DNA of 20,000 nucleotides from positions 53,227-73,226 of IMG/VR virus record IMGVR_UViG_3300032560_000010. The stretch is one strand, 5' to 3'. Of the stretch, positions 4,511-20,000 are shown piece after piece. A model generated the notes under the pieces. It was not told the DNA's origin, searched no databases, and saw nothing but the letters and a program-made list of their open reading frames with translations. Both the position numbers and the translations under genes were made by a program. Each line of letters opens with the position of its first letter. Position 1 is the stretch's first letter. The stretch comes from an uncultured virus (IMG/VR IMGVR_UViG_3300032560_000010). Taxonomy: Duplodnaviria; Heunggongvirae; Uroviricota; Caudoviricetes.

Positions 4511-4858
4511 TTATACTCCTGCGGTATTATATGAGTATTTTGATATCCTAAGCGCAATTGAAGATTGCAACCCTATAGTAGAAATAGTAAGATTTCCATT
4601 AGGTGAACAATTAATATTTTGGGCTAAGGTACATCCCATAGATGTAAAATCTATTTCTCCGAATGTATTGGCATAAGTTTGCCATACTACCGTGTTACCC
4701 ATTTTGATTGTCCAATCGCCAGACCATGCCATTTGGCAGATTGCAATTCCTGTTATCGTTTCTGATGTATTTGCTGCAAATGCTGATAAAGCATATGAAT
4801 TATTTGCTATATCCACAACACCAGCATGTCCAGCCATTTGATTTTTAATTACAGGCAT
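4511..4858 (-). CDS. Hypothetical protein in head-assembly cluster, 115 aa
   Basis: Coupled to the upstream gene by TAATG overlap with GGAGG RBS; ends 1 nt before the gp21 ATG; beta-strand-like composition; no family recognised. Confidence 0.75.
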   Translation of the reverse strand: MPVIKNQMAGHAGVVDIANNSYALSAFAANTSETITGIAICQMAWSGDWTIKMGNTVVWQTYANTFGEIDFTSMGCTLAQNINCSPNGNLTISTIGLQSSIALRISKYSYNTAGV

Positions 4859-5694
4859 TATTCGCCTCCCGCAGAAATTTTATTGAATACCGCTACAGCA
4901 GCTTCAATTAATCTAGATTTTGCCAATTTAGATTCTATTCTAGACTGAATATCCTCTTTCATTGAAGGGCCAGTTGGCTGTTCTGGTGGTAGTCCAGCAG
5001 AACCATTATCATTTTCTGGTTGTTCAGATGAAGATTGGACCAAGTAATCATATAATTTGGTGACTACATCTGAACAATTTTTAAGTTCACTGGATATAGA
5101 TTCTGGAATATTTGAATTTTCTTGTAGAATTTCGAATGCTTCGGCGGCTTGTAATGCGATGCCTTCTAATAGAGATTTAGTATTGGCAGCAGCTTTACTA
5201 AAATCGCTTGCGTTTACGGAACCTAATCCCATAGATGGATTATCGGATGAAGCCGTGGCCACGTCTGCACCACCGGTATCATCACCACCAGCTTCATGCA
5301 TCGAAATACCAACAATTTTTTTACTAGCAAGATTTCGTCCATTTTCACGATTTATTAATGGCCGTCTATCGGCATCGTCTATATGATCTGCCTTAAATTT
5401 CGTAGCTTTCATTTTATATTTAAGAAGTAAAGATTTAGTCAATTCAGTTAGTTCTACATGTTCGTCCATAGAACCAGCAGCACCAGTTGTTATCTGGTCG
5501 CCTTTACGACGACCTTGAGCCGGTTTTGTAGATCCTTTAAATACGTCATCACCATTACCGTTTCTATCAGCAATAGGTTTACTATTTCCTTCTACTTCAC
5601 CTTGGTTTTTATAAGCCGTTTCACGTTCGGATGCAGGCATCGAATTAGGAGAAAGATAGTCGTTTGTATCTTTATCTATTTTTGCTTTAGGCAT
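4858..5694 (-). CDS. Hypothetical head-region protein, 278 aa (possible prohead core/internal protein; T4 gp68 position)
   Basis: Likely start ATG 5694 (MPKAKIDK) overlapping the gp67 stop, GGAG upstream; low-complexity linkers alternating with helical blocks; function inferred only from position. Confidence 0.65.
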   Translation of the reverse strand: MPKAKIDKDTNDYLSPNSMPASERETAYKNQGEVEGNSKPIADRNGNGDDVFKGSTKPAQGRRKGDQITTGAAGSMDEHVELTELTKSLLLKYKMKATKFKADHIDDADRRPLINRENGRNLASKKIVGISMHEAGGDDTGGADVATASSDNPSMGLGSVNASDFSKAAANTKSLLEGIALQAAEAFEILQENSNIPESISSELKNCSDVVTKLYDYLVQSSSEQPENDNGSAGLPPEQPTGPSMKEDIQSRIESKLAKSRLIEAAVAVFNKISAGGE

Positions 5695-5851
5695 TGTCGT
5701 TCTCTTCTCCATCGAATTCAGATGCAATTTCTTGTTTCCTAGAATCCATTAGATCTTCTATTTTATCTCTAACAAGATCATCAAAATTGCTTTCTAGATC
5801 AATATTATCACCATTAATGATGTTATTTAAAATATCTCTTGCATCGGCCAT
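5687..5851 (-). CDS. gp67: Prohead core protein (T4 gp67-like), 54 aa
   Basis: MADARDILNNIINGDNIDLESNFDDLVRDKIEDLMDSRKQEIASEFDGEENDNA*. RBS AGGAGA 7 nt upstream, directly after the portal gene, acidic with KxEIAxxF ending. Not in ORF track. Confidence 0.8.
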   Translation of the reverse strand: MADARDILNNIINGDNIDLESNFDDLVRDKIEDLMDSRKQEIASEFDGEENDNA

Positions 5852-8181: not shown

Positions 8182-10209
8182 TTATGAATACTGACCAATG
8201 ATTGTGTTGAATGCAACGCCTGTTCCAACAGCAACAAAATTCAATTGAATATAATTGATAGATTTTGCTGGCTTGATGTAAATATCGCCAACAAATTGAT
8301 TAGCATCAATTACAGCCCCTGTATTATTAGTGGAGTCACAAATAACTGTAAATGCAGATATACCAGATCTTCCTTGAATCTGTTGCAAATAAGGTACTAC
8401 CATATTTGTAAATTGTGCTTGTGTGAACGCATTATTGAATTCAAACAAACTGCTACGAGCTGCCTTAGAAATAGCAGCTTCCAAAGCAATGAACAATCTA
8501 CGAACATTGATTCTATCAAATGAACTTGGCTTTCCTATCATTGTCTTATCGCCGTACAAGATAGTTCCTTGGCCGGGGAATGTGACAATAGGATTGATAT
8601 CATTTTGATATAGAAGATCACGCTGAGCTTGGTTAGGATTGTAAAGTAATTTTGTGACGTTTTTGATTTGACCACGATTAAATCCAGCTGGTGACCACCA
8701 TGTATCACGGGCATAATCTGTTGCTACACATAGCCCAGCGATATCCCCATTAAGCGGAACCCAACGATAAACGTCATTATACTTATCGTATTGATACTTA
8801 TAAGATCCATCCATAACTGCATATGAGCTATTATAATTAATTCCAGCGACAGAATTTGTGCTATTTCTAAAGTTTACAGCATATTGATATGGAGACTGAC
8901 TAGAAATAATACTAGAATCAGGAGAAACAAATGCCATACAATCCATTCTTGCTTGAGCAATATTAGATATGATGTAGTTAGATAGTCCGCCTACGGAATT
9001 AGCTTTACCCTGAAGTACAAGAGATATTGAGATATCTTCTTTGCTTGCAAATAAGGCGAAGCCATTAGCAATTGCGCCCAAAGAGATAGTTCCTTCAGAA
9101 GATGAATCTACACCTTGGTTAAAATAGCCAGCATATGCATTAGTTGTTGTTGCATTTGTTAAAGAAGATCCGACGCCTGTAGCAGCTCCTATTCTATCTG
9201 TTATAGCATATACATAATTAGACATATAATTAAGAATATTTTTATAAAAATTGGTAGTTCCAGATGAAGTTTTGGAGTCTGTGGCACGAGACATAGCAGG
9301 CCACACTTCAAGAACCTGATTAGGATTATTTGAGAATTTACCATATGTATCCACAACCACAACATGGATTTCGTCTTGTGCGGTCAATCCAAGTCCAGAC
9401 ATAAATAGTGAAGTTCCGGGAGCCTTTGCAACCGAATTATAGAATTCCCAATAACGAGTTGTATTATTAGAAGACATTGTGATATTGGTAGGCAAGCTAT
9501 AATTAGATGCGAATGATACGGTGACCCCATTAGCATAGTATACAGCATTGGCAGAAACTTCCGCTCCAACTGGTGCGCCAATAGCAGAAACTTTTAAGAA
9601 CTGATATCCAATGGTTCCGTTACCAACCTGCACATAATCACCAACTGACAAGGCTCCTAGTACGCTGTTAGCTGCAACGTTACCACCACCTTGAACGGTA
9701 GACGATGCATTAACTGTGGCCACATTAGATCCAGTGGTGAAGGTTAGAGATGCAACGTTTGCTACTAGATTAGATGAATAAGCTGCCGCACTATCACAGA
9801 CAGATATACGAAGAGAATTACCCAAAGATCCTGCATATTTTGCTACGTATTGAATATTTGCACCAATTGTGGTATTAGCAAAATCGTTATAATTATCTAG
9901 CTGAGGAGCGGTGGCTGCACCTGTATTTGCAATAGCATTTTGAGCCTGAGAATCATATGCACGAACTACGTACAAAGCATTACCATATGCTAAGAAATTA
10001 GCAGCGGTAAAGAATGATTCATAAGTATTTGCATCTGGGCTACCGAAAGTATTCACCAGTTGGGATTCTGTGCTAATTAAAGTTGGAGTAAATGCTGGAC
10101 CCCAACGAAATACGCCAGCAAAACCACCTACAGTAGTTGCTACAGCTGGGATAGATGTAACTGTATCATATTCTTGGGTAACAACACCCGGACTTACCTG
10201 AATTACCAT
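8182..10209 (-). CDS. gp18: Contractile tail sheath protein
   Basis: 675 aa; SPGV, FRWGP, FFTAANFLAYGNALYVVRA, YQYDKYNDVYRWVPLNGDIAGLC, WWSPAGFNRGQI, FDRINVRRLF, IKPAKSINYIQLNFVA. Confidence 0.98.
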   Translation of the reverse strand: MVIQVSPGVVTQEYDTVTSIPAVATTVGGFAGVFRWGPAFTPTLISTESQLVNTFGSPDANTYESFFTAANFLAYGNALYVVRAYDSQAQNAIANTGAATAPQLDNYNDFANTTIGANIQYVAKYAGSLGNSLRISVCDSAAAYSSNLVANVASLTFTTGSNVATVNASSTVQGGGNVAANSVLGALSVGDYVQVGNGTIGYQFLKVSAIGAPVGAEVSANAVYYANGVTVSFASNYSLPTNITMSSNNTTRYWEFYNSVAKAPGTSLFMSGLGLTAQDEIHVVVVDTYGKFSNNPNQVLEVWPAMSRATDSKTSSGTTNFYKNILNYMSNYVYAITDRIGAATGVGSSLTNATTTNAYAGYFNQGVDSSSEGTISLGAIANGFALFASKEDISISLVLQGKANSVGGLSNYIISNIAQARMDCMAFVSPDSSIISSQSPYQYAVNFRNSTNSVAGINYNSSYAVMDGSYKYQYDKYNDVYRWVPLNGDIAGLCVATDYARDTWWSPAGFNRGQIKNVTKLLYNPNQAQRDLLYQNDINPIVTFPGQGTILYGDKTMIGKPSSFDRINVRRLFIALEAAISKAARSSLFEFNNAFTQAQFTNMVVPYLQQIQGRSGISAFTVICDSTNNTGAVIDANQFVGDIYIKPAKSINYIQLNFVAVGTGVAFNTIIGQYS

Positions 10210-10255
10210 TTCTATGCTCCTCTTATGGGATAAGACTTAAACTTCATCTTTGTTA

Positions 10256-10263
10256 TATTTATG
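10256..10263 (-). promoter_or_regulatory. Late promoter CATAAATA upstream of gp18
   Basis: Intergenic CATAAATA between the terminase stop and the gp18 RBS (AAGAGGAG). Confidence 0.7.
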
Positions 10264-10275
10264 AAAAGCCTATTC

Positions 10276-11472
10276 TTAAAAGAAGAAGTTGTCTTGTCCC
10301 GGAGCTTGATCGTCTGGATCGAAGTCTTTTAAATGAAAATCCATGTTATAAAACTCGTCATGAGAGACAGTTTCTTTATCATTATAAGAGTTAACATCAA
10401 AGAATCCAAATGGCGTTATAGAGTCTTCAATTAAAGCTTTATTGTCGATCCAAAGATCATCTCTTACATCAGTTCCTGTTTTATTTTTGAAATATGGTTG
10501 AGTTGCCATCCATGCAAATAGGACACAACACATAACCAAATCATCATGAGATCCTTCTTCAGCTTCATATGAAGCTTTATTTTCAACGAATCTGAATAAT
10601 TCGAATATTAGATTATAATCACTGAATAATAATTTTTCACCTTCAATTAAACTTTTTAAATTTGCACAACCTATTCGTTTAACTTGTTTTGTGGTTCGAA
10701 CGCCTCTTAGAGGTTTGACTTTATACGTTCCACCAATTCTGACACCAGCCCTTCCCTGAGTTTGGGTGAGTAGAACCCCATCATATTCTAGGTCATTATG
10801 GAGAATATCTGCTATCTGTTGACCATTATCATTAACTTCTATTAAAACTAATGCATTATTGAAATGCATTCCAGCTCTGTATATAATATTAGGGTATAAT
10901 AAAGGTGATATTTCGTTATCGTAATAAGTTGCAACTATTCTATATGGAATATCTGTCACATCCACTACAATAAATGCAGAATAATCTATACTAACCCCTC
11001 TTGACACGTCTACTGTCATTACATACGCATGATTAAGTTTTGGTTCCTCATATATTAAAAGATTCTCGTGTCTATTTATTGGCTCTTTCCATGTCAATTG
11101 GTGGAGCTTTTTAGCATCTATTAATGTATTTGTGGATCCTAGAAATTCACAATTATGCGATACAACATTATTTGTATAATAAGTATGACTTTCTGTGTTC
11201 ACTACATCATAAAACTCAAATTGTCCTGATGTGTATTCGGAGTGGATAACTTTTGATAATCCACTTTTTGTTAAGATTTTATCTGAATCTGTAATATTGT
11301 CTGATGTTTTCCAACCTGAATTCGTTAATAATTTATGGCCTAAAGCACATATAAGATTATCTCCAGACTCAAGTTGAATCTCTATTTTTCCATGTTTGAT
11401 AACTTTCTGAATACTAGAAAATGATTCAAACCCGTATGGTGTTCTAATTAGAGTGGATTGATCTGGTGTCAT
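10276..11472 (-). CDS. gp17: Large terminase C-terminal precursor: split-intein C-fragment (aa 1-107) fused to TerL nuclease domain (aa 108-398)
   Basis: After SHN the sequence continues CEFLGSTNTLID, then nuclease motifs TVDVSRGVSIDYSAF, LIEVNDNG, TTKQVKRIGCANLKSLIE, SYEAEEGSHDDLVM. Confidence 0.93.
   Translation of the reverse strand: MTPDQSTLIRTPYGFESFSSIQKVIKHGKIEIQLESGDNLICALGHKLLTNSGWKTSDNITDSDKILTKSGLSKVIHSEYTSGQFEFYDVVNTESHTYYTNNVVSHNCEFLGSTNTLIDAKKLHQLTWKEPINRHENLLIYEEPKLNHAYVMTVDVSRGVSIDYSAFIVVDVTDIPYRIVATYYDNEISPLLYPNIIYRAGMHFNNALVLIEVNDNGQQIADILHNDLEYDGVLLTQTQGRAGVRIGGTYKVKPLRGVRTTKQVKRIGCANLKSLIEGEKLLFSDYNLIFELFRFVENKASYEAEEGSHDDLVMCCVLFAWMATQPYFKNKTGTDVRDDLWIDNKALIEDSITPFGFFDVNSYNDKETVSHDEFYNMDFHLKDFDPDDQAPGQDNFFF
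11152..11472 (-). mobile_element. Split intein C-fragment (IntC), 107 aa, with blocks B, F and G
   Basis: Own ATG preceded in frame by TAA; IRTPYGF, block B ICALGHKL, block F FYDVVN..HTYY, block G NNVVSHN followed by Cys+1. Confidence 0.92.
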
Positions 11473-12022
11473 TTAATATATTCTCAATCGTTCTAGGTGC
11501 CACATTATGCTTTTTTGATTCAATTATGGCAAATTCTCTTAAATATGTCTTTAATTTACCATTTTTACTTTTAGTAGGTTCTAATGGTATATCATAATAG
11601 TTAGACTTATGTCTACTCTTAATATTTAAACATTCATTATCAGAAATTTTTAATTTACCATATCTATTACCTTGTCTGATTTTACTTAACTTATTTTTTG
11701 TTTCAATTGAATGGGGCTTACCTTTATTCCAAGGTATGGTTCCTTTTTTAACACCGCCTATTCTAGGTCTTTTTTTACCAGTTTGAATATTTTTGATATG
11801 ATCTGGACCCAGACCAATCCGCTTGGCAATCAACACTGCCGATCCCCAATCACCTTGTCGCATATGAATATTCATATGCTCATTAATACTGATACATGAT
11901 AAATTTGAAATATCATTATTAGCTCTGTTTCCATCTATATGATGAATTTCATATGAAAATCCAAATTCATCTTTTGGTATTTGGCCGTTCGATTCGGTCC
12001 AGATTTTTCTATAATTAGTCAT
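11444..12022 (-). CDS. Free-standing HNH homing endonuclease with NUMOD3-like and possible HTH DNA-binding regions
   Basis: 192 aa; YEIHHIDGNRANNDISNLSCISINEHMNIH (HNH), PWNKGKPHSIETKNKLS (NUMOD3-like), C-terminal KKHNVAPRTIENIL; sits between the two terminase halves. Confidence 0.9.
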   Translation of the reverse strand: MTNYRKIWTESNGQIPKDEFGFSYEIHHIDGNRANNDISNLSCISINEHMNIHMRQGDWGSAVLIAKRIGLGPDHIKNIQTGKKRPRIGGVKKGTIPWNKGKPHSIETKNKLSKIRQGNRYGKLKISDNECLNIKSRHKSNYYDIPLEPTKSKNGKLKTYLREFAIIESKKHNVAPRTIENILNDTRSIHSN

Positions 12023-12028
12023 ATTATC

Positions 12029-13882
12029 CTAAGAAGTCGTATTCTTATTATTTATAATGTCTTTGATTTTAACTTCTTTGGATTCACCATTTATTTGTAA
12101 TTCAACAATAGTATCTCCATCTACACACTCAAATTCTTGAGAAAATTGTCGTTCAGAGGTATTAGCAATGGTTTCTTCTTTCCATTCCTCATCTCTTCCC
12201 GGTATCATAGACCAATGGACTTCACACCTTACATATCTGTTTCTATTTTCTTCTGAATCTGTCCATATTTTATAGAAAAGATTCATTCCATTAGGAGTTG
12301 ATGTGATTAAAACTTTAGTTGTCTTACCAGACGATATAACAGGATAAACAGATGTAAAGAATTTTTCTTGAAGATTATTTTCAACGAATGCAAATTCATC
12401 AAGATATACTATATTATATGTTTGACCACGAGCAGATGATCCTGTAGTAGAAGTCGCAATGATTCTAGATTCATTCTCTAGTTCAATGTCACCTTCGTTC
12501 CATCTGATAACCCCTTGCTGTAACCATTTTGGTAGATACTCGAACATCATTTTGATACGCCCAAGAATTTCCCTAGCCTGAGAATCTTTATTAGCTAGAA
12601 TAGCAATTTTAAAATATTCGTTAAATAATATCTTATGAAGAAGATATGCCGCTACAGTTGTAGTATTATGAGTTGGAATTAATGTTTTACCCGCCAAAAA
12701 TAAATGTGACTCGTTATCTACCTGAAGACATCTCACAGGTCTAGTTTCTACTTCTTCTATAGATTCAATGTATAATCTGGAATTTTTAGGATGATCTTTA
12801 CAATTTTGAATACTTGATTTTCTAGGTAAATTAAATACACGCTCAATTGTTGTGAAATTTACAGTATAGTATGTAACATCATTTATTATTTTAGATAATT
12901 TAGTCGATTTTATTCCAAGAGAAGAAAGTAAAGTTCTAAATTCATCTATAAAATCTTCATTTCGTTGGTAAAATTCACAACCTCCATTTTGTTTTCTGAC
13001 TGAACCATCAGTGTCCATCAAACCTCTTAATAATTCTAAGCGAACTTCTTTCGATCCGAAAAGATATTCTTTTGGAATATGTTTATTTTTGAGTAAATTT
13101 TGTTTAGATAAATCTGATCTAAGGTCTTCCACTCTAATTCTTAGAACATTGGAGTTGCGCTTGTCTGCCAATACCGATTTAACTTTAAATTTATTTTTAT
13201 AATACTCGAAATCATCCTTATGACATGTTATCGTGCCGTCAGATGAAGTTCCGGCACCAAGCCATACTCCAAGAGTATATGGGTCTATGATATAATCATT
13301 TTTTCTATTAAATTCTACAGTTTTTGTAAAATTAATATAAGGACGATTTGATTTATGTAAATATGGAATTATTTCTTCAGTTGTTATAGTTTTTGTTCCA
13401 GTTCTCCAATTTACACAATCAACATCCCATAAATGCTCAGCATCTGCGATTATAGTATCTCCATTGGAGAATTTAACTTCATAACATTTTCTATTATTCA
13501 TTTCGTCTGTTATAAATACAATTTTTGTTTCTTTACCGTCAGGTCCATAGATGCTATCTCCAACTTTTAGATTTCTAAGTTTTTGAAATCCAAAAGGTGT
13601 TAATATATCTGTTTCAATATCTAAAGCTTTTCCAACCTGCCGAGGCATCTTACATATTACAAATCGGTTATCCTCAAATTTGAGGATCATTTCCTCTTGG
13701 AATCCCCATAGATTAAAATTTATCAATCCGTGGTCTACATGAACAATTTTACAATATGTTTTAATAAAATAAAGAATATCATCTGAACAACGGGCATATT
13801 CGTCTTCTTGTTCGTCAGTCCATGGTAGTCTTACATTTGCAGCTTTTAAATTTTTATTACCTAAATAATTTTCACGAGCCAT
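12029..13882 (-). CDS. gp17: Large terminase N-terminal precursor: ATPase domain interrupted by a cis-intein (aa 86-406) and ending in a split-intein N-fragment (aa 586-617)
   Basis: YLGNKNLK, LWGFQEEM, Walker A MPRQVGK|TTT, ILANK, IVYLDEFAF (Walker B), ITSTPNGMN, RQFSQEFE; follows gp16. Confidence 0.95.
   Translation of the reverse strand: MARENYLGNKNLKAANVRLPWTDEQEDEYARCSDDILYFIKTYCKIVHVDHGLINFNLWGFQEEMILKFEDNRFVICKMPRQVGKALDIETDILTPFGFQKLRNLKVGDSIYGPDGKETKIVFITDEMNNRKCYEVKFSNGDTIIADAEHLWDVDCVNWRTGTKTITTEEIIPYLHKSNRPYINFTKTVEFNRKNDYIIDPYTLGVWLGAGTSSDGTITCHKDDFEYYKNKFKVKSVLADKRNSNVLRIRVEDLRSDLSKQNLLKNKHIPKEYLFGSKEVRLELLRGLMDTDGSVRKQNGGCEFYQRNEDFIDEFRTLLSSLGIKSTKLSKIINDVTYYTVNFTTIERVFNLPRKSSIQNCKDHPKNSRLYIESIEEVETRPVRCLQVDNESHLFLAGKTLIPTHNTTTVAAYLLHKILFNEYFKIAILANKDSQAREILGRIKMMFEYLPKWLQQGVIRWNEGDIELENESRIIATSTTGSSARGQTYNIVYLDEFAFVENNLQEKFFTSVYPVISSGKTTKVLITSTPNGMNLFYKIWTDSEENRNRYVRCEVHWSMIPGRDEEWKEETIANTSERQFSQEFECVDGDTIVELQINGESKEVKIKDIINNKNTTS
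12032..12127 (-). mobile_element. Split intein N-fragment (IntN), 32 aa, block A only
   Basis: After ...SQEFE the ORF ends CVDGDTIVELQINGESKEVKIKDIINNKNTTS*, i.e. a Cys1 block A plus the K-I-K-D-I strand, then TAG. Confidence 0.9.
12049..12056 (-). promoter_or_regulatory. Canonical T4 late promoter TATAAATA inside IntN coding tail, upstream of the HNH gene
   Basis: Exact TATAAATA 26 nt upstream of the HNH ATG; the RBS AGGA overlaps the IntN TAG stop. Confidence 0.65.
12665..13627 (-). mobile_element. Class 3 cis-intein, 321 aa, with LAGLIDADG homing endonuclease domain, inserted in TerL Walker A
   Basis: Starts ALDIETDILTPFGF (Ala1); block B ADAEHLW; block C YTLGVWLGAG; block E LLRGLMDTDG; block F VRCLQVD; block G IPTHN|T. 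Removing it restores PRQVGKTTT. Confidence 0.93.
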
Positions 13883-14306
13883 TAATCTTCTTTTCTTTTA
13901 TTATTCTTAACATTTCTGTCGATGTTAATGTCAAGTTATTATTAATAGTTTGATTAGTAGGGCCATCTATATTCTTCATCAATTCTTTTTTCTTTTGATG
14001 AAGATCTAATACACCTTTAGTGGTTTCTCTGATAGTATCTACCAATTTAGCCACAACTTCATATGTCCTTGCGCTTTGCGATCGGTTAGCTAAGGTAGTC
14101 AAAGTACCCAAAGCTGATTGACTCTGCTCTAATGCCCCTAATAGGGCATCTCTGACCACATCAAAATCTCCGGCGGCTTGTTCAAAATCATTTTCAGGCG
14201 GAGAATGTTCTACCAATTCGACGTGATCTTGCTCTGGTAAAATCATCGGAGATAAGTTTAATAGTTGGGCGAGTTTATCTTTTTTTGGAGCTTCTTTTTC
14301 GCTCAT
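13872..14306 (-). CDS. gp16: Small terminase subunit
   Basis: DFDVVRDALL...SARTYEVVAKLVDTI...LDLHQKKKEL...INNNLTLTSTEML match gp16. Start moved to ATG 14306 (AAGGTG RBS), 144 aa; overlaps the gp17 start. Confidence 0.9.
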   Translation of the reverse strand: MSEKEAPKKDKLAQLLNLSPMILPEQDHVELVEHSPPENDFEQAAGDFDVVRDALLGALEQSQSALGTLTTLANRSQSARTYEVVAKLVDTIRETTKGVLDLHQKKKELMKNIDGPTNQTINNNLTLTSTEMLRIIKEKKINGS

Positions 14307-14356
14307 ATGACACCTTTTATCCAATAATTGATGGTTTATCTTTCATATATAGGCTT

Positions 14357-15265
14357 TTAAGTAAATAATGGTAAATCTGGTTCCATTGCATTACCAAAAT
14401 CAGCTTCACCGGGAAGGTCTGGATATGGATTTGTCTGGGTTGGTAAATTTTCTGTAAATGTAGTGATAAAGCCGTAATTGGAATTAGCCGTAATTTGAGA
14501 TGCTGGAATAGATTGAGACGCATTAGAAGTAGGCAATCCATTAGCAGTTAATCCCGGTTGAACCTCAAATGTTTGAGATATTGTAGCTGTTCCTATAGCA
14601 TTGGAAATATCCACTCCATCTGGTGGAATGCGGAGATTAATCGTGGCATCCGTGATTACACCCTGACGAGTGACAGGTCCAAAAAACCATGCCTTCATAG
14701 TAAACACCAAATCCCAAAGTACAAATTCTTTATTTTCAAAATTTCCACTATATGTATCAGTTGGTTGAACATTTTTTAATACCACAGGTATACTATAATT
14801 TTTACCAATTGAAGATATAAGATTTAATTCTTGATTCCAATTGGGAGTAAAAAATGGTAATATTTGCTCAATTATTCTGGTAGCATCTTCCGTATTTCTA
14901 CAAATTATTGATAATGTGAAGTCTATATTCCATGGAACTGGATTATAGACTGTAGACATAGTGCTGCCTGAATATGTGGAACTTAAAGTATCAATTGTAC
15001 TAAGTTTTCTTTCTGTATCGTAATAAAATCCTGTTATTTCGAATGCCATTCTTGGCAATACCATAGAAACTTCACGAAGAAGGTCTGGATTTTGTATCTG
15101 ACGAGTGAGATATCTTTCTTTCGGACCATAATCTAATGGAATTTTCATTGTTTGTTGTACCGAACCAGATGCATCAACTCTGTCAATAGAAATATCTGAA
15201 AATAATGATCCAAAGAATGTCACATATTTGCGAGTTAACCCGTTATAAAAGTTTTGACCTAACAT
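14357..15265 (-). CDS. gp15: Tail sheath stabiliser / tail terminator
   Basis: 302 aa; FYNGLTRKYVTFFGSLFSDI, IPLDYGPKERYL, LPRMAFEI, IIEQILPFFTP, FTMKAWFFGP. Confidence 0.95.
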   Translation of the reverse strand: MLGQNFYNGLTRKYVTFFGSLFSDISIDRVDASGSVQQTMKIPLDYGPKERYLTRQIQNPDLLREVSMVLPRMAFEITGFYYDTERKLSTIDTLSSTYSGSTMSTVYNPVPWNIDFTLSIICRNTEDATRIIEQILPFFTPNWNQELNLISSIGKNYSIPVVLKNVQPTDTYSGNFENKEFVLWDLVFTMKAWFFGPVTRQGVITDATINLRIPPDGVDISNAIGTATISQTFEVQPGLTANGLPTSNASQSIPASQITANSNYGFITTFTENLPTQTNPYPDLPGEADFGNAMEPDLPLFT

Positions 15266-16729: not shown

Positions 16730-17821
16730 TTAAAACGCTGAATAGAATGAAGCAAGGTTGAAGATTGTTTGAAGAGTAGCTCCATTAGTATATCTAACAC
16801 GATAAAATGTATTTCCAGATTGGGCACCTACAGCAGGAATAGTTGCAGTTGCGCCTGTACTCGCAACTGTGGTTACGTTTACTACTGCTCTCCATGTAGC
16901 CTGATTATCTAAAGATTGGTCTATGTAAAGAGTTCCTGCTTGATCCGAAAATGATACAGCCTTAAAATAGCAAAAATTACTGTTTGCAAGCTGTCTTCCT
17001 GTACCGGTAAATGTGGCAATTGCGCCTAATACAGTATTAGAATCTGTATATCCATTGGTAAGCATCAACGAACCAAGGGTATTATTTCCAGCTGGTAAAG
17101 GTGACGCAGGATCCATTCCTACGGTGACCAAAGAAACATCTGGTGCAGATGAAGTAATTGTGGTAACAGATACGTTACCTGTTCCAACAATAGCAGTCGA
17201 TAATCTAAGTCTTAACTGAGGATATCCAGAAACAGGAACCTGCCAGCTATGAATTCCTGCACCTGTGAATGTGAACGTTGTATCAGTAGCATAACTATCG
17301 GTTCTAGGTGCTTTTGTAGGAACCCAAGAATATCCATCAAATAGTTCGAATGTAGCCGCTCCACCTGTAATTGTTCCCTGAGGGGTTAGAGTTACAATTG
17401 CAGTATCAAATCCAGCTGTGTTTAAAGTTACAGCTGTGTTTAATGCAGTTCCACTAGTCCAAACGACATTATTAGGTGCTGTAAATCCATCTATGATAGG
17501 AATAGGGTTGGCATTAGTAACCAGAGCGCCATTATAAATTATTTGAGTGTTTGATGTTCCTTGTATAGCAACGTTACTTGATCCGATCAAGGCTACATTA
17601 CCCTGTACTACAACATTTCCTTGCGGTGAAGTTGTAACAACTCCTGACACTGTAACATTTGCTGTCCCTTGCACTACTACGGCAACATTAGATTGATCCG
17701 ATGCTAGAACAACGGGAGAAGATTGAGATGACACTCCTTGCCCAACAGATGGGGTTGTAAAAACGGCAGCTACATTACCATATGCGTCTCTTACATTAAG
17801 CTGAACTTGACCTGATGACAT
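16730..17821 (-). CDS. Putative virion structural protein, 363 aa
   Basis: Thr/Val/Gly/Asn-rich; N-terminal short beta repeats (VQGTANV, VQGNVAL, IQGTSNT) then two probable beta-sandwich modules; own late promoter and AAGGAG RBS. Confidence 0.6.
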   Translation of the reverse strand: MSSGQVQLNVRDAYGNVAAVFTTPSVGQGVSSQSSPVVLASDQSNVAVVVQGTANVTVSGVVTTSPQGNVVVQGNVALIGSSNVAIQGTSNTQIIYNGALVTNANPIPIIDGFTAPNNVVWTSGTALNTAVTLNTAGFDTAIVTLTPQGTITGGAATFELFDGYSWVPTKAPRTDSYATDTTFTFTGAGIHSWQVPVSGYPQLRLRLSTAIVGTGNVSVTTITSSAPDVSLVTVGMDPASPLPAGNNTLGSLMLTNGYTDSNTVLGAIATFTGTGRQLANSNFCYFKAVSFSDQAGTLYIDQSLDNQATWRAVVNVTTVASTGATATIPAVGAQSGNTFYRVRYTNGATLQTIFNLASFYSAF

Positions 17822-17858: not shown

Positions 17859-18824
17859 TTATGGAGTCAGGGCTGTGATAGCAGCTTTATACGTGGTATT
17901 AGTGGTAGATGTAGGGGTGATCAATATATTAATATTTGGAGTAGAATAAGAAACATCAGTTGTAAAAATTAATCCAGAAGTATAAACCATCCCATATTCC
18001 GTGGCTACAGCTGTGGTATTGTTTGAAGTCACAAGCAATTTTGTCGTATGTCTATCGCCAGTACTTAAGGTTCCTTGGATCGTTATTTCAAAAGAACCAT
18101 ACGGAAGGGAGGCTAATGTGAATTGGGTTATTGTATTAGAAGTTGCCGTTGCAGATAAATGTGAAGAGTTTCCGACAGCTAAAACTGAAGTTGTGGTTCC
18201 ACTTATTGTAAGATTAGATGTGATGGTAGAGCCTGTAGATACAACCTGTGACCATGTATTGCCAGAACGTTCTCTAAACCATAAACTAGGAGTGGATGTT
18301 CCTATTAGTTCGAATCCTCTAGTAGTAGTATCTCCACCACCCATAGAAAACCAATATACGAGGCTACCAGATAATCCAGCTGGATAATTATTGGATGTCG
18401 TTAGGTTTACAAATCTACTTTCATGTATTTGTGGATATGAATTAAAATCATATCCATAATATGTTCTGCCTCCTTGCATTGATGCATAAGTCACAACTTG
18501 CCCATTAGATGGGGTTACTGTATTAGCAAAAGATATTAAAGTAGAAATTAAATTATTAGTTGTTATGGTCCCCGTAGGAAAAGACAACGATGTAGAATTA
18601 GCTGTGATGGATGTTCCTAATGCCCATGATGATGAAACATATTGGTTAGGAACATTTGCACCAACATAAAATATTGAAGTTCCATTCGAAGAAACAATAG
18701 TAGAGTCTGTCAAATTCACTGCCAATGCCCCAGCAGGAATGTAGGAACCGTTAGCTGAATTTGTTGTATTAGGAAGATTTCCAGATGTGGAAGTCCTCTT
18801 AAATTGGATTATATTGTTAGCCAT
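17859..18824 (-). CDS. Putative fibre / virion appendage protein, 321 aa
   Basis: N-terminus IQFKRTSTSGNLP...GALAVNLTDSTI resembles the N-terminal motif of T4 distal long tail fibre subunits (IQFKRS...GELAINLKDRTI); Ser/Thr-rich; C-terminal TEYG-containing beta domain. Confidence 0.65.
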   Translation of the reverse strand: MANNIIQFKRTSTSGNLPNTTNSANGSYIPAGALAVNLTDSTIVSSNGTSIFYVGANVPNQYVSSSWALGTSITANSTSLSFPTGTITTNNLISTLISFANTVTPSNGQVVTYASMQGGRTYYGYDFNSYPQIHESRFVNLTTSNNYPAGLSGSLVYWFSMGGGDTTTRGFELIGTSTPSLWFRERSGNTWSQVVSTGSTITSNLTISGTTTSVLAVGNSSHLSATATSNTITQFTLASLPYGSFEITIQGTLSTGDRHTTKLLVTSNNTTAVATEYGMVYTSGLIFTTDVSYSTPNINILITPTSTTNTTYKAAITALTP

Positions 18825-19431: not shown

Positions 19432-20000
19432 TTAGAACGTTCCGCCATCCAAAGTACCCCATGCAGGTAGATTGTTGGTTACCTGAAGTATATATCCATT
19501 TGCAGCACCGATTCCCAATCTAGAAAGGGTGTTTGTGGCAGATGCATAAAGAATATCACCAGCTGCATAAGCATTCTGGGCTGTACCACCAGAAGTTGCA
19601 GCTAAAGGAGTAGATAAACTTAAACTGGTTGCAGATATATTGACTGCTACTGTAGCATTTGCTGTGGCAGTGATAGATGTAGAATTAACAACAAATGCAC
19701 CAGAGTTGCCCCAAGGTTGTAGATATGCCTGAAGTGGCATAATGGTATCAGCACCAATAGTTGTAAGAGTTGGTTTTGTATTTACCGCAAATAATACGAA
19801 TGCGTTTGCAGCAGCAACACGGCCAACTCCATAATATGCAGTTCCATAAAAGTTAATTGTATTTGCTTGGGTTGTGCCTGTGAAGTTAGAAGACATCACA
19901 ATTACTGTAGAGTTTACAGAAGTTACAGTAGCACCGGCAGGAAATCCTACAGCGCCAGATGTTATAACTTGACCGGCTGCAATATTAGTAGTAGAAGATG
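19432..20000 (-). CDS. 3' part of a putative tail fibre / structural protein (starts beyond right edge)
   Basis: Frame is open to the window edge (SSTTNIAAGQVITSGAVGFPAGATVTSVNSTVIV precedes the track's start). C-terminus PLAATSGGT...GDILYASATNTLSRLGIG...WGTLDGGTF is fibre-like. Confidence 0.65.
   Translation of the reverse strand, partial: SSTTNIAAGQVITSGAVGFPAGATVTSVNSTVIVMSSNFTGTTQANTINFYGTAYYGVGRVAAANAFVLFAVNTKPTLTTIGADTIMPLQAYLQPWGNSGAFVVNSTSITATANATVAVNISATSLSLSTPLAATSGGTAQNAYAAGDILYASATNTLSRLGIGAANGYILQVTNNLPAWGTLDGGTF

Follow-up and report, generated by a model that had tools for sequence, protein, structure and literature searches.

Organization of the terminase locus

The window analysed here, 20,000 nucleotides in its full length, contains the large terminase (TerL, a T4-like gp17) of an uncultured lake phage as three extein pieces distributed over two genes, an N-terminal ORF of 617 aa (12029-13882, minus strand) and a C-terminal ORF of 398 aa (10276-11472, minus strand). 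The terminase lies in its usual position between gp16 and gp18, its frames are open, and the Pfam families matched over the locus are Terminase_6N, LAGLIDADG_3 and Terminase_6C. The N-terminal ORF is interrupted by a cis-intein with the junctions VGK85|A86...THN406|T407TT; the junctions of the split intein read QEFE585|C586...S617 stop in the first ORF and M1...SHN107|C108EFLG in the second, and the exteins add up to 85+179+291 = 555 aa. These ORFs, junctions and lengths had been given in the preliminary description, and all of its coordinates proved correct. Its expectation that the spliced protein is collinear with gp17 also holds: on T4 gp17 (3ezk), residues 3-86 and 407-584 of the N-terminal ORF align to 84-167 and 167-352, and residues 105-331 of the C-terminal ORF align to 351-562, all pieces in the same order. 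The ATPase, nuclease and intein motifs are intact, the nuclease residues of extein 3 being D155, E212 and D311; for T4 gp17 the triad D401/E458/D542 is given in PMC3012670.

Table 1. Features of the terminase locus (positions in the window).
Feature	Position	Strand	Basis or remark
TerL extein 1, aa 1-85	13628..13882	-	terminates in Walker A PRQVGK
Cis-intein assigned to class 3, 321 aa (A86-N406)	12665..13627	-	structure matches and catalytic motifs
Ala in place of the LAGLIDADG Asp of block C (A210, GVWLGAG)	13253..13255	-	homologue comparison
TerL extein 2, aa 407-585	12128..12664	-	remaining ATPase, Walker B YLDEF, C-end QEFE
IntN, 32 aa, Cys1 = C586; stop 12031-12029	12032..12127	-	alignment to CatN
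T4-type late promoter TATAAATA	12049..12056	-	within IntN tail, upstream of HNH start
Predicted RNA hairpin pairing the HNH Shine-Dalgarno (AGGA, 12030-12027)	12011..12094	-	folding
Degenerate look-alike of C-extein start DNA (homing-site half), candidate autorepression operator	12026..12041	-	
Free-standing HNH + NUMOD3 endonuclease gene, 192 aa	11444..12022	-	Pfam HNH_3 and NUMOD3
IntC, 107 aa	11152..11472	-	H46, D89, S105-H106-N107
TerL extein 3, aa 108-398 of C-terminal ORF	10276..11151	-	Cys+1, RNase H-like nuclease
Whole mobile cassette IntN + HNH + IntC, 976 nt	11152..12127	-	precise absence in relative

A public contig, which may itself be the source, covers the whole stretch with 0 differences, and a second sequencing run matches 10200-12479 with 0 differences. 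With this contig and this run in agreement, an assembly artefact is ruled out, and the three-piece layout with two inteins is real. At least half of the words of the terminase gene are present in 19 runs, 9 of them marked as a possible source; no RNA dataset containing the gene is among the listed runs. An intact second terminase, proposed earlier as the observation that would overturn the spliced reading, does not occur on the 73-kb record, nor does an additional intein, this record being estimated as only 40% complete. A decaying, non-functional gene, its role taken over by a functional terminase encoded outside the recovered sequence, would fit that incompleteness, the endonuclease decay described below and an altered HNH start codon in one contig. 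However, a non-functional terminase gene is highly improbable given the usual gp16-gp18 place, the open frames, the intact motifs and the recurrence of the gene in the 19 runs.

The class 3 and split inteins

The cis-intein interrupts Walker A between its Lys and its Thr, and its structural matches are 6rix (E 5e-23) and 6bs8 (E 1e-21). Its position 1 is Ala (A86), that is, not Cys, Ser or Thr; the WCT triplet (B12 Trp, F4 Cys, G5 Thr) corresponds to W152, C385 and T404; T407 stands at +1, H150 in block B and H405-N406 at the terminus. These are the features of class 3 inteins (PMC2807308), to which we assign it on its sequence, with splicing predicted. In this class, splicing depends on the block F Cys and runs through two branched intermediates. 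Elsewhere the Walker A site also holds class 1 cis inteins (locus L009 and Vibrio phage VP-1) and a split intein (L003). The LAGLIDADG endonuclease of the present intein is likely dead or crippled: the active enzyme is marked by an acidic residue in block C as well as in block E, where the Asp has a catalytic role (PMC8966425), and here block E (GLMDTDG) is intact but block C has Ala. Among 120 homologues this position is Asp in 118, Asn once and Ala here only. Neither the broken motif nor the HNH gene between the terminase halves appeared in the preliminary description.

The second element is inserted at EFE|CEF of T4-like gp17, the site of AceL, GOS and Cat, and joins a short IntN with Cys1 to a long IntC with blocks B, F and G (32 and 107 aa), as is characteristic of that family. 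IntC matches CatC (6dsl_B) with an E value of 2.7e-9, and IntN aligns to CatN with an identical EFE flank, its E value of 1.2 being weak on its own. Across 75 cassettes there is hardly any variation at S-H-N, D89 (Glu in one), H46 or Cys/Ser1. Position 7 of IntC block B is Ala in 4 of the 75, as here, and Ser or Thr in 70; this Ala appears to be a variant outside the family-defining features, and it could slow IntC splicing. The modelled association of IntN with IntC was 0.71, versus 0.01 for the best control, in a test whose mark is attained by 116 of 157 solved pairs and by 2 of 215 mismatched ones; with a Cat complex already solved (6DSL), however, a pass by likeness is likely. The model runs share at least 86% of contacts, with a partner pLDDT of 71-72. 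Judged by these sequence features, the element is an atypically split class 1 intein, and trans-splicing is predicted. The class 3 and class 1 assignments of the preliminary description are thus borne out by sequence and precedent.

The split point coincides with the ATPase/nuclease boundary of gp17, where the T4 interface exceeds 1000 square-angstrom, and the two halves might work unjoined in the manner of the split NrdA of phage Aeh1, with either IntN-IntC or the domain interface keeping them together; the block B Ala would also be compatible with such a pair. Yet T4 gp17 severed in the linker no longer translocates (this, like the interface, from PMC3012670), AceL, GOS and Cat do splice (reviewed in PMC11766414), and the near-invariance of the splicing residues in the 75 cassettes argues against a non-covalent pair, which we consider very unlikely. 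Searches of the literature on gp17 N360/C360 and on PI-SceI D218/D326 gave no matches.

With one intein at the Walker A Lys|Thr and the break at the domain boundary, both splicing steps are likely required for a working motor, as had been suggested. C385 would attack the Lys85-Ala86 bond and pass extein 1 on to T407 in a class 3 reaction in cis. IntN, of 32 aa, would fold into the 107-aa IntC, and C586, C108 and N107 would ligate the ATPase to the nuclease (class 1, in trans) to give the 555-aa motor.

Mobility and distribution of the two elements

The free HNH gene between the halves, whose catalytic domain is I-TevIII-like, starts only 6 nt after the IntN stop and shares 29 nt with the start of IntC. 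Fractured genes share this arrangement, as well as the occurrence of cassette-free alleles (P0002 and run X21) and a late promoter and hairpin before the endonuclease, the hairpin being found in one of three overlapping folds. In a contig of X21, from a close relative, exactly 976 nt are missing at the place of the cassette, after which the sequence continues into the class 3 intein. Support for the late promoter comes from its position, not from its count, because the matches in the window (2) are no more than expected (4.1); it is the only exact one on the minus strand, and 14 gene starts on that strand of the contig have TAAATA no more than 60 nt away. The hairpin has -13.8 kcal/mol and z -2.46 in the 101-nt fold, with z -0.08 and 0.82 in the overlapping folds of 66 and 36 nt.

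The look-alike of the homing site is identical at 8 of 10 non-wobble positions in the present copy (p 0.10). In promoter-bearing loci it scores 17/27 and 12/15, against 2/22 and 1/9 in promoter-less ones, and the family-wide signal is strong in a codon-position test that was designed post hoc on the same data and then run on new loci. Identity is 260/304 at codon positions 1-2 versus 54/152 at position 3, a bias that would fit an operator as well as a relic in slow decay or the arm of a hairpin and does not separate them; scored over all 16 positions, the look-alike is weak (mean 9.8 versus 9.0; p<=0.05 in 9 of 50). No look-alike of the upstream half was evident in the survey. Four contiguous inteins at the EFE|CEF site contain no clear copy by eye, so there is no support for a pseudo-target as the cause of the odd split point. 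The HNH gene is in frame with IntN here, which would allow read-through of the TAG; this was rejected as chance, because the frame is not kept in L010, L035 or L038 and other genes read normally with table 11. The HNH enzyme would be expressed late from its own promoter and cut cassette-free alleles near EFE|CEFLG in co-infection, and it may repress itself via the look-alike site.

Joining at the RNA level, by a group I intron or ribosomal bypass, would instead produce a contiguous mini-intein and no trans-splicing. Contiguous mini-inteins do occur at the EFE|CEF site (L079, L176), and the terminase of Campylobacter phage IBB_35 was described in print as having "an intein and an intron" (PMC3322345). 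Nonetheless, the region 10000-14400 has no Rfam match at E<=1, the 6-nt gap and the HNH-IntC overlap speak against such joining, the gap between the halves ranges in relatives from overlap to >1 kb, and the IBB_35 sequence itself reads as a split intein. RNA-level joining is hardly credible here.

Among the top 120 homologues, 31 (this one included) have the class 3 intein with IntN and 89 the cis intein only. Eight unrelated complete loci (L131, L147, L148, L152, L182, L184, L188 and L189) share the layout and both sites. Both sites are empty in at least 65 of the 80 loci nearest by extein 2, including the 81% identical L005/L006, and the nearest tree row, P0002 (88%), has only the class 3 intein; all samples were seeded with the inteins, and these counts are therefore not population frequencies. 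On the extein tree, which was made by FastTree only and is blurred by homing that converts the flanks, the double-intein state requires 24 changes over 26 rows (with shuffled labels the mean is 24.0, and 292 of 500 shuffles are as low). Among 17 independent pairs, a sample of low power, the second intein changes with the first in 3.4, against it in 6.5 and not at all in 7.0 (median p 0.51). Neither, either and both are interleaved in close relatives, with no positive association. By this comparison of sequences, each element is shown to be gained and lost separately among relatives. These four interleaved states do not sustain the earlier proposal of two evolved gates on packaging; nor is there support for a special pairing, since it recurs in 30 other proteins of the top 120 and cis-plus-trans terminases exist in cultured phages. 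The parts are ordinary and their combination common.

Because relatives carry either, both or neither, stacked selfish elements are the most likely reading, rather than a regulatory double switch. We think it very probable that this terL holds two inteins of known type, likely independent homing arrivals, each predicted to excise itself. Both splicing reactions would then be obligatory costs, with no evolved two-step control; the LAGLIDADG enzyme would formerly have spread the class 3 intein and would now be starting to decay.

The preliminary description had also raised redox or metal sensitivity. Redox sensitivity is chemically plausible because C48, D62, H65 and W67 match the redox-sensitive DnaBi1 (in its numbering; Cys48 corresponds to C133 of the cis-intein, and the pair of Cys48 and block F Cys is present), but an evolved role finds no support. 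In such a role, one or both inteins would be retained as Cys-dependent splicing pauses packaging in oxidative or metal stress, with a Cys48-Cys300 disulfide as in DnaBi1. Mycobacterium smegmatis DnaB, with class 3 P-loop and class 1 inteins of which the first is redox-responsive, offers a precedent (PMC6195587). Domestication, too, would be expected to keep a redox pair while an endonuclease Asp goes, and independent gain and loss would be compatible with a conditional benefit of either intein alone. However, PMC6195587 also reports that DnaBi1 Cys48 is required for splicing itself; as it is also present in 97 of the 104 homologues in which the motif could be located, it is no marker of regulation. 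The catalytic Asp is retained in 118 of the 120 homologues, as in mobile elements, endonuclease-bearing class 3 inteins have been suggested to be constitutive splicers (PMC7891396), and the tree and the pairs give no sign that the inteins are coupled or retained, near relatives lacking both. A conditional gate is thus unlikely, and it is decidedly unlikely that domestication has turned the class 3 intein here into a redox switch for the packaging ATPase, in series with trans-splicing. Were such a switch real, it would be the first stress-gated viral DNA-packaging motor; only a true gate would change the view of phage packaging control, and the significance is otherwise modest.

Known systems and wider meaning

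The T4-like terL is an intein hotspot whose sites are filled independently, so that in annotations a single motor is often broken up as two or three "hypothetical" genes. A family already used for protein labelling gains dozens of natural split inteins with a short IntN (26-47 aa, Cys1 or Ser1), and the locus is a natural setting in which to see if class 3 splicing in cis and class 1 splicing in trans disturb each other within one chain.

AceL-TerL, GOS-TerL and Cat (6DSL; PMC11766414) share with the present split intein the TerL host, the EFE|CE flanks, Cys1/Cys+1 and the sizes (IntN 32 versus 25-37 aa; IntC 107 versus 104-115 aa). Unlike them, it has Ala at block B position 7, an IntN tail with KDIIN in place of EDLY, overlapping the late promoter, and an N-terminal half that also carries a class 3 intein. 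The fractured genes of Dassa et al. 2009 (PMC2677866), among them a gp17 locus with an unusual break and a locus, DnaE-1, with part of an additional embedded intein, likewise combine an IntN gene, a free endonuclease, an overlapping IntC gene, a late promoter and a hairpin. Their endonucleases are GIY-YIG or Vsr-like, whereas the one here is HNH, as reported for MIJ3 PolB; the terms "operator" and "homing site" are absent from the main text of that paper. The autorepression operator of I-TevI (reviewed in PMC2988022) is a comparable homing-site look-alike adjoining the late promoter of its endonuclease, with a demonstrated function, whereas ours is a pattern in the DNA, weak in the present copy.

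Class 3 P-loop inteins (Tori 2010, PMC2807308; PMC5050341; PMC5259590) have the same Ala1, WCT, Thr+1, Lys|Thr insertion and LAGLIDADG, and are known from mycobacteriophage TerL (Kelley 2016, PMC5050341) and the RaK2 terminase (PMC5259590); the same class 3 intein is found in cultured phages B3, B23, RaK2, ELT3 and UE-S1. Serratia phage 92A1, like cyanophage B3, is a cultured carrier of one of the two elements. The present one differs from other class 3 P-loop inteins in the lost block C Asp and the split intein partner. In M. smegmatis DnaB, according to Kelley 2018 (PMC6195587), a single ATPase also combines class 3 P-loop and class 1 reactions, with Cys48; there, DnaBi1 and DnaBi2 are both cis, DnaBi1 is a mini-intein and regulation has been demonstrated experimentally, whereas our case is made from sequence.

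We found no published account of the exact pairing of class 3 and trans-splicing in one terminase, nor this pairing in a cultured phage among the 17 terminase regions examined, of 3,401 and 115 matching records; CPt10 and some others were judged by their annotation tables. Cultured phages do have cis and split inteins in one terminase: Vibrio phage VP-1 (MH363700), whose two sites are those of the present locus (GK|T for the cis intein, QEYD|C...HN|CSFLG for the split one), Campylobacter phage CP21 with two cis and one split intein, and IBB_35. The database records of these three phages do not annotate the cis-plus-split layout. Their cis inteins are class 1, in contrast to the class 3 intein here, and the IntN of VP-1 is fused to a GIY-YIG-like segment, whereas the HNH gene of the present cassette is free-standing.

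Terminase exteins and the class 3 intein

The preliminary description divided the large terminase subunit (TerL, gp17) into three extein pieces, residues 1-85 and 407-585 of one reading frame and 108-398 of another, 555 residues in total. All of these numbers proved correct, and on alignment with T4 gp17 the pieces are collinear. The cis insert separates Walker A Lys85 from Thr407; it is 321 residues long, begins with Ala and contains W152, C385 and T404, the type of triplet that, with an Ala start, defines class 3 in the available text of Tori 2010 (PMC2807308). By sequence, its closest structures are the mycobacterial DnaB inteins 6rix and 6bs8. Block C of its endonuclease has Ala in place of Asp, the sole such case in 120 homologues, which, together with the accessible part of PMC8966425, suggests from sequence that the endonuclease is in decay.

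Judging from what is known of these families, C385 would initiate class 3 splicing and T407 would restore the P-loop after excision, and the N-half of the second, split intein (IntN) would dock into its C-half (IntC), with C586, C108 and N107 joining the ATPase and nuclease domains. The split point lies a few residues ahead of the boundary between these domains, and T4 gp17 cut at its linker is reported to retain both activities and lose translocation (PMC3012670, in the part available), which makes it likely that ligation of the terminase halves is required.

The window forms the terminal part of a virus record that is 73,226 nt long and has an estimated completeness of 40%. Genes gp13 through gp23 plus uvsY, a T4-like late cluster, lie on the window's minus strand. 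Runs containing the stretch are lake or freshwater metagenomes almost throughout (n=24; 9/24 a possible source). On the minus strand of the record's contig, most late genes are preceded by a promoter resembling CATAAATA rather than TATAAATA; the exact T4 form there lies upstream of the HNH gene.

Features located in the window
Feature	Position	Strand	Remark
T4-type late promoter TATAAATA	12056-12049	-	before HNH gene
HNH gene	11444-12022	-	between IntN and IntC
Late-region ORF	4858-5727		no match in Pfam, PHROG or NCBIfam
Late-region ORF	4511-4858		no match in Pfam, PHROG or NCBIfam
Late-region ORF	17859-18824		no match in Pfam, PHROG or NCBIfam
Late-region ORF	19432-19998		no match in Pfam, PHROG or NCBIfam
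ORF	16730-17821		weak C-terminal match, XepA-like

The split intein cassette

The second element is broken after 32 residues. Since IntC matches CatC (E 2.7e-9) and the flanks EFE and CE are identical to those of the Cat split intein, its site is the AceL/GOS/Cat site (here the EFE site). When IntN and IntC were modelled together, the pair scored 0.71 and the best control 0.01; the mark was reached by 116/157 solved pairs and 2/215 mismatched pairs, contact agreement was at least 86% and partner pLDDT 71-72. Because the Cat complex has already been solved, this model shows likeness rather than binding.

The intervening gene encodes a 192-aa HNH and NUMOD3 protein, 47-51% identical to counterparts at the same place in four other phages. 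The late promoter, a hairpin and an overlap with the IntC gene are described for such cassettes in the available text of Dassa 2009 (PMC2677866), and all three controls recur here, the hairpin as a prediction: with z -2.46 it spans the ribosome-binding site, and neither of two shorter folds was significant. In a near-identical locus (L001, which differs at 2 positions over 4,200 nt) ATA replaces the ATG start of the HNH gene (L001:4275 region, window 12020), through either an assembly error or a variant in decay.

Across 75 EFE-site cassettes, this single split site is paired with an HNH, a GIY-YIG-like, a large Vsr-like or no endonuclease gene; residue 1 is Cys in 54/75 and Ser in 21/75, and Glu occupies -3 in 75/75. 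At seven loci (L127, L313, L322, L326, L346 of phage VP-1, L351 and L102/G2494) IntN is instead fused in frame to an endonuclease-like tail of 200-350 aa, with no free gene.

Adjoining the late promoter, many cassettes contain DNA that copies the beginning of their own C-extein. A score of at least 8/10 at codon positions 1-2 was reached by 17/27 promoter-bearing cassettes and 2/22 without a promoter, and at new loci by 12/15 and 1/9, the rows being related and the test devised after a first look at the data. The first codon of this look-alike tracks the +1 residue (TG in 21/31 Cys+1 and 0/7 Thr+1 loci; AC in 4/7 Thr+1 and 0/31 Cys+1 loci). The look-alike would fit a candidate I-TevI-type operator, as far as the available text of PMC2988022 goes; it might instead be a hairpin arm or a relic. 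The window's own copy is weak (p 0.10).

Probable independence of the two inteins and the proposed gate

Among the 80 loci nearest by middle extein, both sites are empty in at least 65, nine hold just the split intein, and in one the Walker A site is taken by another intein, of class 1. In P0002, the nearest protein (88% over both N-terminal exteins), the class 3 intein is present and the split one absent; a contig from run X21 continues into the class 3 intein and is missing precisely the 976-nt cassette. A FastTree phylogeny was built from 130 dereplicated rows, drawn from a set of 323; of the 130, 37 had neither intein, 36 the class 3 intein alone, 31 the split intein alone and 26 the pair. 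The excluded rows were loci that were incomplete or contained other or additional inteins, duplicates of the window, and five proteins whose Walker A insertion was larger. On this tree the double state took 24 changes (shuffled mean 24.0; 292/500 shuffles as low). In 17 independent pairs no positive association emerged (3.4 changing the same way, 6.5 the other way and 7.0 unchanged; median p 0.51), in a test of low power and with extein trees blurred by homing. Nothing in these tests suggests that the two inteins behave as a unit. The terminase is made of known parts, and the explanation that fits it best is that two selfish elements have accumulated in a single essential gene.

The preliminary description had proposed that the inteins form two Cys-dependent gates on DNA packaging. 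The class 3 intein is identical to the M. smegmatis intein DnaBi1 at C48, D62, H65 and W67, and DnaBi1 splicing is stalled by oxidation (PMC6195587, in the part available), so that oxidation could stall the present intein as well; its redox sensitivity is thus plausible by analogy. A gating function, however, is unsupported and seems very improbable: the same source has DnaBi1 needing Cys48 for splicing itself, this Cys is general in the family (97/104 homologues where located), the endonuclease looks active in most relatives, and close relatives manage with neither intein.

Pairing and comparison with other terminases

The pairing of class 3 and split inteins is common, the samples all being seeded with the elements, so that counts are not frequencies. 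A homologue search gave 6,842 matches from 8,000 scored; among the best 120, 31 (self included) combine a Walker A intein with an IntN end at the EFE site, and the remaining 89 contain just the cis intein. In 25/150 representatives (50% identity) a sequence pattern flagged an IntN-like tail together with a class 3-type intein end, a raw count including one clear false positive and several with other insertions. Viral contigs yielded eight unrelated complete loci with class 3, IntN, gap and IntC at the same two sites, and a metagenome scan found this order in 15/80 loci, own locus and duplicates counted. A class 3 cis intein with a class 1 trans intein in one terminase was not found described in the available text of the literature on split and class 3 inteins, terminases and phages; the AceL/GOS/Cat and Dassa supplements may list such loci.

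Five loci (L139:3045-7232, L140, L141, L288:870-5185 and L309:1690-5179) have split inteins at both Walker A and the EFE site, and therefore a terminase in three chains, a layout more striking than that of the window; in L139 a long cis intein interrupts the nuclease domain as well. In phage CP81 (L103:3992-5320), split at Walker B, the gene that joins IntC to the C-terminal terminase part lies apart from its N-half, of which none was found within 4 kb. In phage ph0011 (L101:3889-6547) the frame is apparently broken at Walker A, ahead of a class 3 intein.

Among cultured phages, the class 3 intein occurs by itself in B3, B23, RaK2, ELT3, UE-S1 and JNE01; at the EFE site, Serratia phage 92A1 and Vibrio phage 1.244.A have the split intein with no cis partner. 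The annotation of the PX29 record lists an N-intein and a C-intein. Cis and trans inteins do occur in one terminase in isolated phages, since in Vibrio phage VP-1 the same two sites as here are occupied, by a class 1 cis intein between GK and T and by a split intein between QEYD and C, CP21 combines a single split intein with two in cis, and IBB_35, published as intein plus intron (PMC3322345, in the part available), resembles CP21. Compared with these, the terminase of the window differs only in the class of its cis partner.
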